Origin: Escherichia coli
GTDB taxonomy: Bacteria > Pseudomonadota > Gammaproteobacteria > Enterobacterales > Enterobacteriaceae
Strand: one strand, 5' to 3'
DNA: 64,000 nt
Assembly: GCF_003334385.1 (NCBI RefSeq)
Contig: NZ_QOWN01000016.1
How positions within the stretch are numbered: the stretch's first letter is position 1; each line of letters starts with the position of its first letter. Shown piece after piece: positions 2,425 through 13,461 of this stretch. The position numbers and the translations under genes were made by a program. The notes under the pieces are model-generated. The model did not search any database. It had not been told where the DNA came from and saw only the letters and a program-made list of their open reading frames with translations.

Positions 2425-3606
2425 TTAGCGTTCAACGATCGCGATGCGGCGGTTATAGATATTCATCAGCAGCGAGATAGTCAGGCTGATAATCAGATAG
2501 ACCGACATGGTCATGGCTATCGTCTCGATGGCTTGCCCCGTCTGATTCAGCACGGTGCCGGCAAACAGCGAAACCATATCGGGATAGCCAATAGCGGCGG
2601 CAAGAGAGGAGTTTTTGACGATGTTGAGATACTGGCTGGTTAACGGTGGAATAATCACCCGCAATGCCTGGGGAATAATGACCTGGCGTAGCGTAACCGG
2701 GTTGGGTAATCCCAGTGACCGAGCCGCTTCATGTTGACCATAAGGCACTGCCTGGATCCCAGCGCGGATAATCTCGGCGATAAATGCAGATGTATAAACC
2801 GAAAGTGCCAGCGTTAAGGCTGCCAGTTCAGGAATTAAAACCATCCCGCCGCGGAAGTTAAAGCCTCGTAGGGCTGGGACATCCCAGTGTAGTGCTGCGC
2901 CAAAAAGCCATTGCGCCAGTAAAGGCAAACCAATGATCAACACTGCGGCGATCGGCCAGGTGCGGCGCAGTTGTCCGGTCTTTATCTGGTATGTTTTATT
3001 AAAGCGGAATAGCCCAACAGAAAGGACTATAGCCATAACAACAGCCAGGATAAACGCAATAAATCCGTCTCCCAGCTGCGGTGACGGAATATAAAGCCCA
3101 CGATTGCTCAAAAAGGCCAGATCAAACGCGCTCACAGCCTGGCGTGGTCCGGGCAAATTGCGCAACACGGCAAAGTACCAGAAGAAGATTTGCAGCAGCG
3201 GGGGAATATTACGGAAGATCTCAATATAAATTGTGGAAAGCTTTCGTAGCAGCCAGTTATCCGAAAGTCTCGCCAGACCGATAAAGAAGCCCAAAACAGA
3301 AGCGAACACAATACACAATGCAGAAACCAGTAGCGTATTGAGTAAGCCGACAATAAAAACGCGTCCGTAGGTGTCGCCCTGCTGGTAATCGATCAAATGC
3401 TGGACAATACCGAAGCCAGCGCCGCGATCCAGAAAGGCAAAACCTGAAGTAATGCCACGATTATTGAGATTCGTTACAGTGTTGTGAAATAACCAACCAA
3501 CAATGCCGACAACAGCAACAACGGCAAGGATCTGGAATAACCAGGCGCGAACCGTAGGGTTGGCAAAAGAGAGTGAGCCTTTAACGGTTGAGCGGCGATG
3601 AGACAT
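2425..3606 (-). CDS. yhdX: amino-acid ABC transporter permease
   Basis: Membrane permease; ATG at 3606 with GAGG upstream gives 393 aa; ORF track extends 6 codons further. Confidence 0.85.
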   Translation of the reverse strand: MSHRRSTVKGSLSFANPTVRAWLFQILAVVAVVGIVGWLFHNTVTNLNNRGITSGFAFLDRGAGFGIVQHLIDYQQGDTYGRVFIVGLLNTLLVSALCIVFASVLGFFIGLARLSDNWLLRKLSTIYIEIFRNIPPLLQIFFWYFAVLRNLPGPRQAVSAFDLAFLSNRGLYIPSPQLGDGFIAFILAVVMAIVLSVGLFRFNKTYQIKTGQLRRTWPIAAVLIIGLPLLAQWLFGAALHWDVPALRGFNFRGGMVLIPELAALTLALSVYTSAFIAEIIRAGIQAVPYGQHEAARSLGLPNPVTLRQVIIPQALRVIIPPLTSQYLNIVKNSSLAAAIGYPDMVSLFAGTVLNQTGQAIETIAMTMSVYLIISLTISLLMNIYNRRIAIVER

Positions 3607-3673
3607 AGAAACCTCGGAAAGCATAACGCTGAAGAGAGCGCCGCCGTAGCGACGCTCGTTACCTCACACCGAC

Positions 3674-4699
3674 TTAACGCACGGGCGGTGCGTACTGAAT
3701 ACCGCCGTTATTCCAGAGATTATTTTGCCCACGTTTAATTTTCAGCGGGCTTTCTGAACCTACGTTACGCTCAAAAATTTCCGAGTAGTTACCCACCTGT
3801 TTGATGATGTTATAGGCCCATTTATTATCCAGCTTCAGATCCTTGCCGTAATCGCCTTCTTTACCCAGCAGATGTGCCATATCAGGCGTTGCTGGATTAG
3901 CCGCTTTTTCATCGACGTTCTGGGAATTGATGCCCATCTCTTCAGCATTCAGCATGGCGAAAAGCGTCCAGCGTACAATCGAGAACCATTCATCATCGCC
4001 ACGACGAACTACCGGACCAAGCGGTTCTTTTGAGATAACTTCCGGTAAGACAATCCATTCAGCTGGGTTGCTTAATTTGATGCGCAGGGCATACAGTTGT
4101 GATTGATCCGAGGCCAGCGTATCGCAGCGACCAGATTCCAGTGCCTTCGCTGATTCGTCAGAGCGATCGAAAGTCACCGGTGTGTACTTCATATTGTTTG
4201 CCTTGAAGTAGTCGGCGACGTTGAGTTCGGTATCAGTACCCGCCTGAATACAGACGGTAGCGCCATCCAGTTCTTTCGCGCTTTTTAGCCCCGCTTTATC
4301 GTGCGTCAGGAAGCCAATGCCGTCGTAATAAGTGACGCCGGTAAATGCCATTCCCATCCCGGCATCGCGAGATGAAGTCCAGGTCGTATTACGGGAGAGC
4401 AAATCCACCTCCCCTGACTGTAAAGCGGTGAAGCGTTCTTTTGCAGTGAGCGGGGTATATTTCACTTTCGTGTCGTCACCAAATACAGCAGCGGCAACAC
4501 CACGACAAATATCAACATCAATACCTGAAAACTTACCGTCAGCATCGGCATAAGAGAACCCAGGTAATCCATCACTGATCCCGCATTGCACAAAACCTTT
4601 TTTCTGAACGGCATCAAGCGTCGCGCCAGCATGCGCCTGATTTGCAACGGCAAGCAGCACGCTGGCGGCAGCCAGTGTGGCTATCATCATCTTTTTCAT
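3674..4699 (-). CDS. yhdW: periplasmic amino-acid-binding protein of the ABC system
   Basis: 341 aa, N-terminal signal peptide MKKMMIATLAAASVLLAVANQAHA, solute-binding protein family 3 features. Confidence 0.88.
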   Translation of the reverse strand: MKKMMIATLAAASVLLAVANQAHAGATLDAVQKKGFVQCGISDGLPGFSYADADGKFSGIDVDICRGVAAAVFGDDTKVKYTPLTAKERFTALQSGEVDLLSRNTTWTSSRDAGMGMAFTGVTYYDGIGFLTHDKAGLKSAKELDGATVCIQAGTDTELNVADYFKANNMKYTPVTFDRSDESAKALESGRCDTLASDQSQLYALRIKLSNPAEWIVLPEVISKEPLGPVVRRGDDEWFSIVRWTLFAMLNAEEMGINSQNVDEKAANPATPDMAHLLGKEGDYGKDLKLDNKWAYNIIKQVGNYSEIFERNVGSESPLKIKRGQNNLWNNGGIQYAPPVR

Positions 4700-5129
4700 A
4701 ATGCTTCCTGTGAGGCGAAAATTATCGTTATAGGACGTTTGGGAAACGTCTTTTACCTGTCTGTGGCCATCCTCTTATAAGCAAAAGTAGTGCCAGCTTT
4801 TGCGCACGATTTCGCGTCGCAATAAGCTGAGTGTAGACAGGAAATAATAAAAACAGCGCTCCGCAATGGTGCGAAAATGAAACATGCGCCACATTTTGGC
4901 GCAAAATATTTACGCGTGTTTTACTAAGCAGAATAATGATTGTTAGCGTGAGTATATTTCTGGTGGGAAGTGTGAAAATTAAATTGATGCGTTATTTCGA
5001 AAGCAGCGAAATAACGCGATGTAACATGCTAAATCAGCAGGGAATTACCCAGCAGAATATAGCAATATTTTATCTTATGGAGAGATTCTGTATCGTTAAA
5101 AAGAGCGCGGAACTCCGCGCCCTGTTCAG

Positions 5130-5351
5130 TTATTTCGATAGAGCGATGATCCCCATCGTCAGGCCAGCAACAGCAGCTGCCCCGCCGGCAATAGCCCCAG
5201 CCGTTTCCCAGTTATCCTGAGTCGTGCCTTTCATACAGGTATTGGTGTGAACCAGACGACCCTGATCGTCATAAACCGGAACGCAGGGCGAATCGTGAGC
5301 ACAGCCCGCCAGCAATGCGGTGAGCAATGCCACAGGAATTAATCTTTTCAT
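5130..5351 (-). CDS. yhdV: small lipoprotein
   Basis: 73 aa, lipobox LLAGC after signal peptide, Gly/Ala-rich C-terminus. Confidence 0.75.
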   Translation of the reverse strand: MKRLIPVALLTALLAGCAHDSPCVPVYDDQGRLVHTNTCMKGTTQDNWETAGAIAGGAAAVAGLTMGIIALSK

Positions 5352-5603
5352 GGTGTTACCTCAGTAATAAACGCTAACGCTTAATAAGTTAACTCTCTTA
5401 TTAACGAGCTGAATGCCATTTTATCACCGGAGGTTATAAATCTTGCGGAATGAATAATGACAAATTATGTGAATTGTAAAAATAGTGAAGGGAGCGGGAA
5501 CTATAGAAAGCTTTTAAAGAGTGAGCAGAAGAATATCTTATTAATTTTTATGGGTTTCACTGGAAATAATAAAGGCACCCGAAAGCGCCTTTATGTTTCT
5601 GAT

Positions 5604-8600
5604 TTATCCTTTAAAGCAACGGCGGATCACCACAAAGAACACCGGTACGAAGAAGATTGCCAGCAACGTTGCAGAGACCATTCCTCCCATTACCCCGATA
5701 CCCACAGCGTTCTGCGCGCCACTGCCGGCACCGTTACTGATAGCTAGCGGTAATACGCCGAGAATAAAGGCGAGAGAGGTCATCAGGATAGGACGCAGAC
5801 GCATACGTACTGCCATCAGTGTCGCTTCAACAACACCTTTACCCTCTTTCTCCATGAGATCTTTAGCGAACTCAACGATCAAAATAGCGTTTTTGGCCGA
5901 CAAGCCAATTGTCGTTAGCAAGCCCACCATAAAGTAGACGTCATTTTTTTGATTAAAGAGTGTCGCCGCCAGCAGCACGCCGACAATCCCTAACGGCACT
6001 ACCAACATAACCGAGACAGGAATTGACCAGCTTTCATAGAGTGCAGCAAGGCACAGGAAAACAACCACAAAGGAAATTGCTACCAGAGCGGGAGCCTGGT
6101 TTCCCGATAAGCGTTCCTGATACGACATACCCGTCCAGTCATAACCAATGCCCGCAGGTAATTTTGACGCAAGGTTTTCCATCAACGCCATGGCATCGCC
6201 GGAACTGGTTCCTGGCGCGGCTTCCCCCTGAATCTCCATTGACGGCAGACCGTTGTAGCGTTCCAGTCGCGGAGAGCCATACACCCAATGTGAAGTGGTA
6301 AAGGCCGAGAATGGCACCATTTCGCCGTTGGCGCTGCGGACATAAAGTTTATCGACATCTTCTGGCAGCATACGGAATTTGGCATCCGCCTGAACATACA
6401 ACTTTTTCACGCGACCACGGTCGATGAAGTCGTTAACGTAAGTCCCACCCAGCGCCGTTGAAATGGTCTGATTGATGTCAGAAAGTGAAACACCTAATGC
6501 CTGCGCCTTTTCCTGGTCAACTTCCAGTTTAAACTGCGCGGTGTCTTCCAGGCCATTAGGGCGCACGCTGACTAAGCTGGCAGGATGTTGCGCCGCCATA
6601 CCAAGCAACTGGTTACGGGCCTGGGTTAGGGCATCGTGACCCAGCCCAGCCTGATCAATTAACTCAAAGTCGAAACCCGTTGCCGTGCCCAGTTCAACAA
6701 TGGCTGGCATATTGAATGGAATGACAAAACCGTCGCGGATCTTGCCCAATTCCATTTTGGCACGATGGATTACCGCTTCCGCACTGTTTTCGTCACCATT
6801 ACGCTCTTCCCACGGTTTCAGACTGACGAAGGCCATACCGGCGTTTTGTGCCTGGCCGCTGAAGCTAAAGCCGTTAACCGTAAAGACACTTTCAACGTTC
6901 GCTTTCTCGTTCTTCAGATAGTAATCCGTAACTTGATCCAACACTTTTTGCGTCCGCTCTTGCGTCGCGCCAGCGGGTAACTGAATCATGGTCAGAAAGA
7001 CACCCTGATCCTCTTCAGGTAAGAAGGAAGACGGAAGACGTAAAAACAACACCACCATTCCTGCAACAATCAGCGCATAGATCAGTAAATATCGTCCTGT
7101 GGATCCGAGGATTTTGCCGACGCTGTTGGTGTAGTGGTTAACGCTATGATCGAAGGTGGTATTAAACCAACCGAAGAAACCGCCCTTATTTTCGTGATGC
7201 TCAGCAGAGACGGGTTTAAGCAGCGTTGCACATAACGCAGGGGTAAGAATCAATGCCACCAGAACAGAAAGCGCCATTGCCGAAACGATGGTGATAGAGA
7301 ACTGGCGATAAATTGCCCCAGTAGAACCGCCGAAGAATGCCATCGGAATAAATACCGCTGACAGCACCATCGCGATACCCACCAGTGCGCCCTGAATTTG
7401 CGACATCGATTTTTCCGTCGCTTCTTTTGGCGGGAGCTTATCCTCCATCATCACGCGCTTGACGTTCTCCACCACCACTATCGCATCATCGACGAGCAGC
7501 CCGATGGCAAGCACCATCCCGAACATCGTTAGTGTGTTGATGGAGTAACCAAAAGCGGCGAGGATGGCAAACGTCCCTAACAACACCACGGGTACCGCAA
7601 TGGTGGGGATCAGCGTTGCTCGCATATTCTGCAAGAACAGATACATCACCAGGAACACCAGCATAATGGCTTCGAACAGCGTTTTTACCACTTCGTGAAT
7701 AGAAAGCTGGACGAATGGCGTGGTGTCATAAGGGTAGAGAACCTTCATTCCCTGCGGGAAGAATGGCTGTAATTCCGCCAGTTTTGCCTTAATGGCTTTC
7801 GCGGTATCGAGAGCATTCGCGCCGGTTGCCAGCTTAATCCCCAGGCCCGCCGCCGGTTTTCCGTTGATACGAGCGATAACGTTATAGTTTTCACCGCCAA
7901 GTTCAACCCGTGCGACATCTTTCAGGCGTACCACCGAGCCGTCACTGTTTACGCGCAGGGTCACTTTGCCGAATTCTTCCGGATTTTTAAACCGCGTCTG
8001 AGCAATAATCGAGGCGTTCAATTGTTGCCCTGGTAACGCTGGCGTTCCGCCCAACTGTCCGGCAGCGATCTGATCGTTCTGTACCTTCAACTGGTTAATC
8101 ACATCAACCGGTGTCAGTTTATATTTGTTTAGCAGATCGGCATCCAGCCAGATACGCATCGCATACTGTGCGCCGAAAAGCTGTACGTCACCGACGCCAT
8201 TCAGACGGCTAAGCGTATCTTTAACGTTAGAGGCCACATAGTCCGAGATATCGTCCTGTGTGGTGCCTGGGTTATCAGAGACAAAGCCCGCCACCATCAA
8301 ATAGCTGCTACTGGACTTTTCAACACTGATCCCCTGCTGCTGAACCTCCTGCGGCAGCAACGGCGTGGCGAGCTGGAGTTTGTTCTGCACCTGCACTTGC
8401 GCGATATCAGGATCGGTCCCGGACTGGAAGGTAAGGGTAATTGTCACGCTACCGGCGGAATCGCTGGTGGAGGACATATACATCAGGTTATCGATACCGT
8501 TCATATTCTGTTCGATAACCTGCGTCACCGTATCCTGCACGGTCTGCGCATCAGCGCCCGGATAGTTTGCTGAAACAGAAACCGCAGGCGGTGCAATTGT

Positions 8601-10275: not shown

Positions 10276-10938
10276 ATGGCAAAAAGAACCAAAGCCGAAG
10301 CTCTGAAGACCCGGCAAGAACTGATTGAAACTGCCATCGCCCAGTTTGCGCAGCATGGCGTAAGCAAGACGACGCTCAACGACATTGCCGACGCCGCTAA
10401 CGTTACGCGTGGCGCTATCTACTGGCACTTCGAAAACAAGACTCAACTGTTTAATGAGATGTGGTTGCAACAGCCTTCATTGCGGGAGTTAATCCAGGAA
10501 CACTTGACGGCTGGATTAGAGCATGACCCGTTTCAACAATTGCGTGAAAAATTGATTGTCGGCTTGCAATATATTGCCAAAATTCCCCGCCAGCAGGCGT
10601 TGCTGAAAATCTTATATCACAAATGTGAATTTAATGATGAGATGCTGGCCGAGGGAGTGATACGCGAAAAGATGGGCTTTAATCCGCAGACTCTCCGCGA
10701 AGTATTGCAGGCGTGTCAGCAACAAGGTTGTGTAGCAAATAACCTCGATTTAGATGTTGTGATGATTATTATTGATGGTGCCTTCAGCGGAATTGTTCAA
10801 AACTGGTTAATGAATATGGCGGGTTATGATCTTTATAAACAAGCCCCCGCTCTGGTCGATAACGTATTAAGAATGTTCATGCCAGATGAAAACATAACGA
10901 AATTAATTCATCAAACGAATGAATTAAGTGTCATGTAA
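10276..10938 (+). CDS. acrS: TetR-family repressor of acrEF (AcrS/EnvR)
   Basis: 220 aa, N-terminal TetR HTH (FAQHGVSKTTLNDIADAANVTRGAIYWHF); divergent from acrE across an AT-rich ~400-bp region. Confidence 0.9.
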   Translation: MAKRTKAEALKTRQELIETAIAQFAQHGVSKTTLNDIADAANVTRGAIYWHFENKTQLFNEMWLQQPSLRELIQEHLTAGLEHDPFQQLREKLIVGLQYIAKIPRQQALLKILYHKCEFNDEMLAEGVIREKMGFNPQTLREVLQACQQQGCVANNLDLDVVMIIIDGAFSGIVQNWLMNMAGYDLYKQAPALVDNVLRMFMPDENITKLIHQTNELSVM

Positions 10939-10940
10939 AT

Positions 10941-11120
10941 TCACATTCTGTCCTGAAAATTCAGTTCGTCACAGTTAACCAGTTTTAGTGGATTAACTGA
11001 GTTCATATTGCGGCATTTGTCTGTTTCTGTTGCCAGCAGTTCAATCCACTGCATCAGTAAAGTATCAAACAGAAAAACGAAGACAGCGAAAACGACGAGC
11101 CACCAATACTTGCGAATCAT
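10941..11120 (-). CDS. yhdU: small membrane protein (DUF2556)
   Basis: ATG at 11120 gives 59 aa MIRKYWWLVVFAVFVFLF...; ORF track extends 9 codons upstream. Confidence 0.7.
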   Translation of the reverse strand: MIRKYWWLVVFAVFVFLFDTLLMQWIELLATETDKCRNMNSVNPLKLVNCDELNFQDRM

Positions 11121-11203
11121 TACCTGAGCCTGTGCATGTTTAACCAAGTCTGGCAGGAAATATACACGAAATGAATAATCTGAAAACCAGGCTTACACAT
11201 CCT

Positions 11204-12088
11204 TTACTTTGTAATGAGATCGGGGTCAACTTCGCTTAACCGGCTTCGTTTTGACAGGTTGCCGGTCTTTCTTTTTTTCACTTTCGCCAGTTCTTCCGCA
11301 GAGTAATGCGACGCGACATCCAGCCGTCGAAGCCCCATTTTGATGTACTCGCTGTTGATCTCAATACCAATGAATTTTCGTCCGCTGGCGATGGCTACGG
11401 CACCGGTAGTAAAGCTACCAGCAAACGGGTCGAGAACGATATCGCCTGGGTTGGAAGAGGCGAGAATAATGCGTTTCAGTAAGGCTTCCGGTTTTTGCGT
11501 CGGGTGGTTTTCATATTCATCCATCAAATAACGCACGCGCGGAAAATCCCAAACGTTACCCGGTACTTTTTGATGATTGTAAGGCTGTGGAGGATTTTTG
11601 CGATAATCGATCAACGCGCGCTGCGATCCGGTTTTGGCTTCTACCAGAATAGCATCACCGTTGAATGTGTAGTTCTTTGCGTCTTTCACCATCATCAGGA
11701 TGGGTTCGTACATGGAGCCGTAGTGTTTTTTCGCCTGCACTCCAGAACTGTCATATGACCAGACGATGCGACTTTTGATGGTAAAAAGCTTGCGGCACTG
11801 GAGATCGATAAAGGGCATGTTTTCCGTACTGTTCATGATGTACATGCTGCCCTGCTTTTTCAGAACGCGGTGGCACTCTGCAATCACTTCAAACAGCCAG
11901 TCGATAAACAGATCTTCTTTCCAGGCTTCGATCAGACCATCAAAATTTTTACCGATGTTATATGGTGGGTCGGCAAAGATCAGATCGACACTTTCGGCGG
12001 GGATCTTTTTAAGTTCGGCAAGCGCATCACCGTGAATAATGGTCTTAGCTTCATTACCAAACCGGGTCGGTTCACATCCTGTTCTCAT
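11204..12088 (-). CDS. yhdJ: orphan DNA N6-adenine methyltransferase (beta-class)
   Basis: 294 aa from ATG at 12088; motif IV DPPY (FADPPYNIG) precedes motif I (LDPFAGSFTTG); no restriction enzyme gene adjacent. Confidence 0.88.
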   Translation of the reverse strand: MRTGCEPTRFGNEAKTIIHGDALAELKKIPAESVDLIFADPPYNIGKNFDGLIEAWKEDLFIDWLFEVIAECHRVLKKQGSMYIMNSTENMPFIDLQCRKLFTIKSRIVWSYDSSGVQAKKHYGSMYEPILMMVKDAKNYTFNGDAILVEAKTGSQRALIDYRKNPPQPYNHQKVPGNVWDFPRVRYLMDEYENHPTQKPEALLKRIILASSNPGDIVLDPFAGSFTTGAVAIASGRKFIGIEINSEYIKMGLRRLDVASHYSAEELAKVKKRKTGNLSKRSRLSEVDPDLITK

Positions 12089-12111
12089 GGTCACTCCCTT
12101 TGTGACACCTA

Positions 12112-12150
12112 TAAAAAAGGCGCTTCCCCATGCCGAGTAGCGCCTTTTTA
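12112..12150 (-). terminator. dusB-fis operon terminator (bidirectional hairpin)
   Basis: AAAAAAGGCGCT...AGCGCCTTTTTA hairpin with A-run on one side and T-run on the other, just 3' of fis stop. Confidence 0.6.
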
Positions 12151-12173
12151 ATCAAGCATTTAGCTAACCTGAA

Positions 12174-12470
12174 TTAGTTCATGCCGTATTTTTTCAATTT
12201 TTTACGCAGCGTACCACGGTTGATGCCCATCATCAGCGCAGCACGGGTCTGGTTACCACGGGTGTATTGCATCACCATGTCCAACAGGGGCTGTTCTACT
12301 TCAGCCAGTACCAGCTCATAGAGGTCATTCACATCCTGACCATTCAGTTGAGCAAAATAGTTCTTCAGTGCCTGTTTAACCGAGTCACGCAGGGGTTTTT
12401 GGGTTACCTGATCCTGAGAGTTAACGGTAGAAACGGTCAGTACGTCAGAATTTACGCGTTGTTCGAACAT
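12174..12470 (-). CDS. fis: nucleoid-associated protein Fis
   Basis: 98 aa, C-terminal HTH ...[27 protein letters not shown]. Confidence 0.95.
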
Positions 12471-12495
12471 AGTTCTGTCAGCTCTTTATTTCTGT

Positions 12496-13461
12496 TTACG
12501 CAAAATTTTCGAAGTATGCCTCCAACGCCTCCAGCTGTTCGCTGGCATCCTCAATGGCGTTGAATGTGCGCCGAAACTGGTCATTTGGAGCGTGTTCCTG
12601 GAGATACCAGGAAACGTGTTTACGTGCAATTCGGTACCCTTTTGCCGGACCATAAAAGTCATGCAGTTCCCGAACGTGCGCGCAAAGCAAGCGCTTAACC
12701 TCTGCCAAAGGCAGCGGGGGCAGCAACTCCCCAGTGTCCAGATAATGCTGGATTTCCCGAAAGATCCAGGGTCTTCCCTGAGCTGCGCGGCCTATCATCA
12801 GGGCATCCGCCCCTGTATAGTCGAGCACAGCTCTGGCTTTAAGCGGGTCAGTAATGTCGCCATTCGCGATAACCGGAATGGAAACTTTCTGCTTAACTGC
12901 CCGAATACTGTCGTACTCAGCTTCTCCATTGAACAAACAGGCGCGTGTACGGCCATGAATGGTCAGAGCCTGAATGCCACAGTCTTCAGCCAGTTGGGCA
13001 ATCTCTTCGCAGTTACGGTGTTCCGGTGCCCAGCCGGTGCGAATCTTCAGGGTAACAGGAACGTCCACTGCATTGACGACCTCGGTAAGGATCGATTTAA
13101 CGACATCCGGGTACTGCAAGAGGGCTGAACCTGCGAGCTTGCGATTCACTTTTTTAGCCGGGCAACCCATATTGATATCAATAATCTGGGCACCGCTTTC
13201 CACGTTAATACGTGCTGCATCTGCCATTTCTTTCGGATCGCTACCAGCAATTTGCACGGTGCGAATACCGGGTTCATCAATGTGCACCATCCGTAAACGA
13301 GATTTGTCGCTTTCCCAAACCTGTGGGTTAGAAGACATCATCTCGGATACTGTCAATCCGGCTCCCATCTCGTAGCACAACGTCCGAAAAGGTCTGTCTG
13401 TAATGCCAGCCATGGGCGCTGCGATCAGGCGATTTCTGAGCTGATATTGTCCGATGCGCAT
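12496..13461 (-). CDS. dusB: tRNA-dihydrouridine synthase B
   Basis: 321 aa, Dus family TIM-barrel; upstream gene of the fis operon. Confidence 0.93.

Follow-up and report, generated by a model that had tools for sequence, protein, structure and literature searches.

Why a DNA methyltransferase that is an orphan and silent in K-12 should be retained by almost all E. coli, Salmonella and Citrobacter is the puzzle posed by the gene at positions 11204-12088 (minus strand) of the window, the whole 64,000-nucleotide stretch of E. coli DNA analyzed here. The open reading frame marked there by the initial annotation (294 codons plus a stop; ATG at 12086-12088, TAA at 11204-11206) coincides with the RefSeq coding sequence WP_001258895.1 of MG1655, to which its DNA is 100% identical, and it is therefore yhdJ, encoding the beta-class N6-adenine DNA methyltransferase M.EcoKII. 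Over the surrounding interval (10900-12500), the DNA likewise has 100% identity with MG1655 as well as several further K-12 strains, and all 5426 of the 5426 complete E. coli genomes contain a match. In this case the gene and the locus are the same as those of the K-12 YhdJ of Broadbent et al. 2007 (M.EcoKII in REBASE), without any difference. The observation was thus correct and its identity as M.EcoKII is confirmed as an already known feature; the gene has been characterized since 2007, features in all E. coli methylome papers and contributes little by itself. With high confidence, we read this interval as yhdJ/M.EcoKII, an S-adenosylmethionine (SAM)-dependent ATGCAT methyltransferase that is a solitary relative of the EcoT22I/AvaIII type, was fixed behind fis, and in K-12 would be limited in its transcription to read-through.

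On the minus strand, the genes are arranged in the order prmA, dusB, fis, yhdJ and yhdU, with acrS convergent to these and followed by acrEF. The upstream neighbor of yhdJ, fis (12174-12470, minus strand), is the last gene of the dusB-fis operon. The downstream neighbor, yhdU (10941-11120, minus strand), is annotated as encoding a 59-residue DUF2556 membrane protein (PF10831) rather than an endonuclease, and it had no similarity to the endonuclease-family profile described below. The next neighbor, acrS (10276-10938, plus strand), is annotated as a TetR-family repressor and lies outside any restriction-modification (R-M) system. The gene had been described as flanked by fis and yhdU/acrS with no restriction partner on either side, and both the annotation and the endonuclease-profile search agree with that description.

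The protein belongs to the N6_N4_Mtase family (PF01555), which matches residues 34-251 (E = 3e-64, model positions 1-218 of 221), and to the YhdJ equivalog of NCBIfam (NF008572; 589.5 bits against a cutoff of 292, positions 1-294 of 294). Its best PADLOC model is MTase_II PDLC03299 (E = 3.7e-156). Motif IV, the catalytic loop responsible for binding the flipped adenine, was read from the sequence as DPPY (residues 40-43; 11960-11971, minus strand), and motif I, the SAM-binding loop, as FAGSFTTG (residues 222-229; 11402-11425, minus strand); these align with the DPPY and the FFGVGTTG of CcrM (PDB 6pbd), respectively. Motif IV is thus N-terminal to motif I and the target-recognition region falls in between, the motif order of the beta class, as the initial annotation had proposed from the same two motifs and as the residues, the PF01555 match and the CcrM alignment now bear out. 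On careful alignment the catalytic motifs are not lost, since they align with those of CcrM and are kept in the homologues: DPPY is invariant in 80 of the 80 full-length homologues among the matches listed. In the SAM loop (FAGSF), the last glycine of the canonical FxGxG is replaced by phenylalanine. This FxGxF variant was considered as an inactivating change and rejected, because it is common to all 80 homologues among the matches listed, including those linked to an endonuclease, and because the enzyme is reported to be active; it is therefore a trait of the family and not a defect.

Overexpressed YhdJ methylates the second adenine of ATGCAT, giving ATGC(m6A)T, and protects DNA from NsiI, according to Broadbent et al. 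2007 (J Bacteriol 189:4325; PMC1913422) as cited in later papers. The protein is called "CcrM-like" in that work, and the gene is nonessential, its deletion in K-12 giving no phenotype. By SMRT sequencing, ATGCAT methylation is absent from K-12 derivatives with an intact yhdJ, and the authors of the ER2796 paper suggested that YhdJ is perhaps activated under conditions still to be identified. The check put forward with the initial annotation, methylome sequencing with overexpression, has thus already been largely carried out in published work, which gave ATGC(m6A)T as the product and a silent native gene in K-12. In S. Typhimurium, YhdJ is natively active, with 513 ATGCAT sites methylated, and deletion of the gene did not reduce fitness in mice. 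A regulatory role, which had been entertained for a solitary methyltransferase, is minimal in Salmonella, where the deletion changed 12 transcripts in LB and 0 in SPI-2 medium. A 2026 preprint on Salmonella describes a higher number of methylated ATGCAT sites during mid-exponential growth than during late stationary phase, with no link to expression changes. The window contains 9 ATGCAT sites relative to 10.7 expected under a Markov model, which is no signal of avoidance in a stretch of 64 kb that is too small to be informative.

The silence of yhdJ in K-12 may be related to the region upstream of its start codon. From the fis stop codon (12174-12176) to the yhdJ ATG (12088) there are 85 nt, within which folding places the intrinsic terminator of the dusB-fis operon (12113-12149, minus strand), a hairpin and a run of six T with a dG of -19.2 kcal/mol. 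The hairpin itself (12114-12149, minus strand) has an 11 + 3 bp stem ahead of the T run and ends 24-25 nt before the yhdJ ATG. A 101-nt fold that includes the terminator has a z-score of -3.1 relative to shuffled sequences. A fis terminator hairpin just upstream of yhdJ on the same strand had been noticed before, and the fold confirms it. A simple terminator scanner with a loop limit of 8 nt missed this terminator, likely because an internal mismatch interrupts the stem, so that the contiguous outer stem encloses a loop of more than 8 nt. Between the terminator and the start codon lies a 24-nt leader (12089-12112, minus strand) with the Shine-Dalgarno sequence AGGGAG (12094-12099), which the fold assigns to the loop and the 3' side of a weak hairpin of 5 bp (dG -5.3 kcal/mol). 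The sequence of this leader varies between genera, and it is too short to hold a sigma-70 promoter. A crude consensus-match scan of the minus strand from 12089 to 12600 found no sigma-70-like promoter, and the same crude scan found none ahead of Salmonella yhdJ.

With no recognizable promoter of its own and a start codon 25 nt past a strong intrinsic terminator, yhdJ in K-12 would be transcribed by read-through from the dusB-fis operon only, as we infer from the lack of a promoter match combined with the position of the terminator. This model fits a K-12 enzyme that works when overexpressed and natively gives no detectable methylation. Since fis is expressed mainly in early exponential growth, the higher mid-exponential methylation in Salmonella fits read-through as well. 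The terminator alone cannot explain the silence in K-12, because an identical hairpin stands ahead of the natively active yhdJ of Salmonella. The same terminator with different activity means that another difference is needed, for example in the leader, in translation, in protein stability or in a promoter that is not recognized as such, and the 24-nt leaders and the proteins of K-12 and Salmonella do differ. An identical terminator in a host where the enzyme is active therefore offers one experimental handle on the puzzle.

Alternatively, yhdJ may have its own promoter within fis or the intergenic region, either conditional or served by another sigma factor, which is switched on under special conditions and makes read-through irrelevant. 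We regard such a promoter as a possibility of some weight, though unlikely on balance. Native methylation in Salmonella despite the same terminator agrees with it, as does the activation under unidentified conditions proposed by the ER2796 authors, but the consensus scans found no sigma-70-like site upstream of the gene in either E. coli or Salmonella, and the ATG follows the terminator after just 24 nt. One study also found that deletion of dusB-fis left yhdJ expression without significant change, which is what an independent promoter would predict; that result is not conclusive because the comparison strain had a cat cassette between fis and yhdJ. Methylation in Salmonella is, moreover, higher in mid-exponential phase, when fis is transcribed, which fits read-through rather than a separate promoter.

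Conservation of the fis terminator exceeds what termination needs. The 36-nt hairpin, 14-nt inner region and loop included, is identical in 22 of 25 Escherichia, Citrobacter and Salmonella sequences, with that of S. enterica the same as that of K-12, and the remaining three, all from Citrobacter, show a single base change or a single indel. The bases that flank the hairpin in the fis-yhdJ intergenic region vary among the same 25 sequences. A genome that has no yhdJ and encodes an identical Fis keeps the hairpin with changes in the inner stem, and a near-identical terminator in a genome without yhdJ argues that the terminator is independent of yhdJ.

The last 15 nt of fis (12174-12188, minus strand; TACGGCATGAACTAA) are the published identity block at which "fis PICI" satellites integrate, and this site is unoccupied in the window. 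The block can extend into the terminator and, where it does, may contribute to the conservation of the latter. A small RNA in the fis 3' UTR was considered as well and rejected. The Rfam match to Salmonella STnc40 scored 25.6 bits against a gathering threshold of 45, and it was treated as a chance match because the Salmonella locus itself gives no such match.

Relatives of YhdJ suggest where the gene may have come from. In a homologue scan that used one genome per species, orthologues with at least 75% identity were found, among the matches listed, in Escherichia, Citrobacter and Salmonella only, and always right after fis. Synteny of fis and yhdJ holds at 24 of 24 enteric loci among the matches listed, and Fis is 100% identical at 23 of these, with 97.9% identity over 94 residues at the remaining one (L018). 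Homologues at 58-72% identity are found, again among the matches listed, in cyanobacteria, marine gammaproteobacteria, Pseudomonas, Bacteroidota and Clostridia. At 45 of the 56 non-enteric loci among these matches, a conserved gene encoding a protein of about 350-380 residues directly adjoins the methyltransferase gene at its 3' end, convergent to it in proteobacteria and cyanobacteria and, in Bacteroidota, transcribed in the same direction. The product of this partner gene had no match in Pfam or NCBIfam and matches the PADLOC Type II REase model (REase_II) over its full length (E = 5e-70).

EcoT22I has ATGCAT as its target, and is an isoschizomer of AvaIII. A relative search identified an E. 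coli relative of the partner endonuclease that is 99.4% identical to an ORF of pEC22, a plasmid described as "coding for MR.EcoT22I", on which an HTH gene is followed by the endonuclease-family ORF and then by a convergent yhdJ-like gene. YhdJ and the pEC22 methyltransferase share 76% identity over 267 residues, about as much as YhdJ shares with its Salmonella counterpart (79%), and the two have the same motifs, including FxGxF. M.EcoT22I is part of a Type II R-M system (Elhai et al. 1994) in which the methyltransferase gene is convergent with and overlaps the endonuclease gene, an HTH controller precedes the endonuclease, and the plasmid is mobilizable; YhdJ, unlike it, stands alone on the chromosome, and about 27 residues at its C-terminal end are left unaligned. 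Modules of endonuclease, yhdJ-like and HTH genes are also present on mobilizable plasmids of 4-6 kb in E. coli, Klebsiella and Enterobacter. Among the complete E. coli genomes, 3 of 5426 carry the endonuclease module, and it is always plasmid-borne. The relationship with a complete module of the EcoT22I type, carried by enteric plasmids, provides a concrete experimental handle on why yhdJ has been kept.

A profile built from 22 members of the endonuclease family, run unfiltered in six frames against the 64-kb window and the 24 enteric loci, found no remnant of the endonuclease (best E > 6). A remnant downstream of yhdJ, with yhdU included, was rejected as a candidate, the family profile having no match there. 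No HTH controller gene is annotated between prmA and acrE, as judged by reading the annotation only. In a neighbor-joining tree, which carries no support values, the enteric orphans form a monophyletic clade that is nested among endonuclease-linked relatives. YhdJ is the solitary chromosomal relative of the EcoT22I/AvaIII-type methyltransferases of small enteric plasmids, with the same target, whose endonuclease and controller genes appear to be absent from the yhdJ locus without trace. From the sequences we infer that the gene arrived once behind fis and then descended vertically, the endonuclease having either been missing from the start or been lost later. One copy was fixed right behind fis in the ancestral lineage of Escherichia, Salmonella and Citrobacter, and purifying selection has kept it since.

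One role that could account for this retention is that of a "molecular vaccine", in which methylation of ATGCAT in advance blunts the killing caused when EcoT22I/NsiI-type R-M plasmids enter a cell or are lost from it. The literature offers a precedent in Dcm of E. coli, for which such a role against EcoRII has been proposed. Like YhdJ, Dcm is a core-genome orphan that has a close homologue of equal specificity, M.EcoRII, in a plasmid-borne R-M system, although it produces m5C and is constitutively active, whereas YhdJ produces m6A and is silent in K-12. The 76% identity between YhdJ and M.EcoT22I, the complete controller-endonuclease-methyltransferase modules that small mobilizable plasmids carry in E. 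coli, Klebsiella and Enterobacter, and the purifying selection on yhdJ are all consistent with such a role, but K-12 has no native ATGCAT methylation, and an endonuclease present in so few of the complete E. coli genomes is rarely met. In addition, laboratories routinely supply K-12 hosts with M.EcoT22I on a helper plasmid in order to shield DNA from AvaIII, which suggests that the chromosomal yhdJ does not protect and counts against a vaccine. Overall, we consider this role doubtful. Slightly less probable again is its more specific form, in which YhdJ would act as standing protection against EcoT22I/NsiI-type plasmids, dosed by read-through of the invariant fis terminator. If that were true, the level of ATGCAT methylation would track Fis and the phase of growth and not a dedicated regulator.

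The gene evolves fast for a core gene yet is clearly constrained, judging by substitution rates. Its dN/dS within Escherichia is 0.05-0.15, and it is full length in 5388 of the 5426 complete E. coli genomes. In a comparison of E. coli with Salmonella, yhdJ has diverged far more than the genes next to it: pS is 0.76 and dN 0.155 for yhdJ, compared with 0.27 and 0.019 for dusB (12496-13461) and 0.07 and 0 for fis; dN/dS is not computable for yhdJ in this comparison because its synonymous sites are saturated (pS 0.76).

Loss of yhdJ is tolerated, as evident in strain LR-25 (L092, 5001-5912), where IS1 follows the first 198 nt of the gene. The rest of yhdJ is missing from this strain together with yhdU, acrS and acrEF, up to the gene that precedes the yhdW-type ABC transporter gene. 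The remaining stump is labeled "RsmD family RNA methyltransferase" in RefSeq. One further E. coli assembly (L091, 3383-4240) has a yhdJ allele with a 285-residue product, shortened at the C-terminus. In L086, whose Fis is that of E. coli, three genes on the opposite strand (3410-6297; products of 72, 765 and more than 314 residues) take the place of yhdJ. No Pfam match is on record for any of the three, and the 72- and 765-residue products had no PADLOC match.

These losses raise the alternative that yhdJ is an inert relic that decays neutrally, which we consider very improbable. Its silence in K-12, the lack of a phenotype upon deletion, the tolerated IS1-mediated deletion in LR-25 and the truncated allele carried by most S. 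Paratyphi A strains would all be expected of a relic, but neutral decay is hard to combine with a gene that is full length in nearly all complete E. coli genomes and whose motifs are invariant among the 80 homologues listed. The dN/dS values, together with the reported activity of the cloned enzyme, largely refute it.

The closest solved structures to YhdJ are the beta-class enzymes CcrM (E = 3.6e-33), M.MboIIA and M.RsrI. CcrM of Caulobacter (PDB 6pbd) resembles YhdJ in its beta-class fold, its motif order and its orphan status, and the alignment of the two keeps DPPY, HPTQKP and the SAM loop. Unlike YhdJ, CcrM has GANTC as its target and an extra C-terminal domain, is essential, and is cell-cycle regulated. 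The alignment ends at CcrM residue 267 of 366, so YhdJ is without the C-terminal domain. There is next to no chance that YhdJ is an orthologue of this cell-cycle methyltransferase, for although CcrM is its best solved relative and the original paper calls it "CcrM-like", its score against NCBIfam NF050803 (135.4 bits against a cutoff of 830) and its different target refute orthology, the alignment covers CcrM residues 11-267 of 366 only, and the gene is nonessential, with ATGCAT and not GANTC as the target of its product.

Two minor observations concern the downstream neighbor. YhdU (59 residues; 10944-11120, minus strand) has a weak PADLOC match to KwaA (E = 0.0047), which is probably a similarity of transmembrane segments only. 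Between yhdJ and yhdU there is a promoter-like site (11159-11186, minus strand) composed of TTTTCA and TATATT with a spacing of 16 nt, and the same two hexamers are found at the corresponding place in Salmonella (L084, 4285-4312, plus strand). The site in the window may be the promoter of yhdU.
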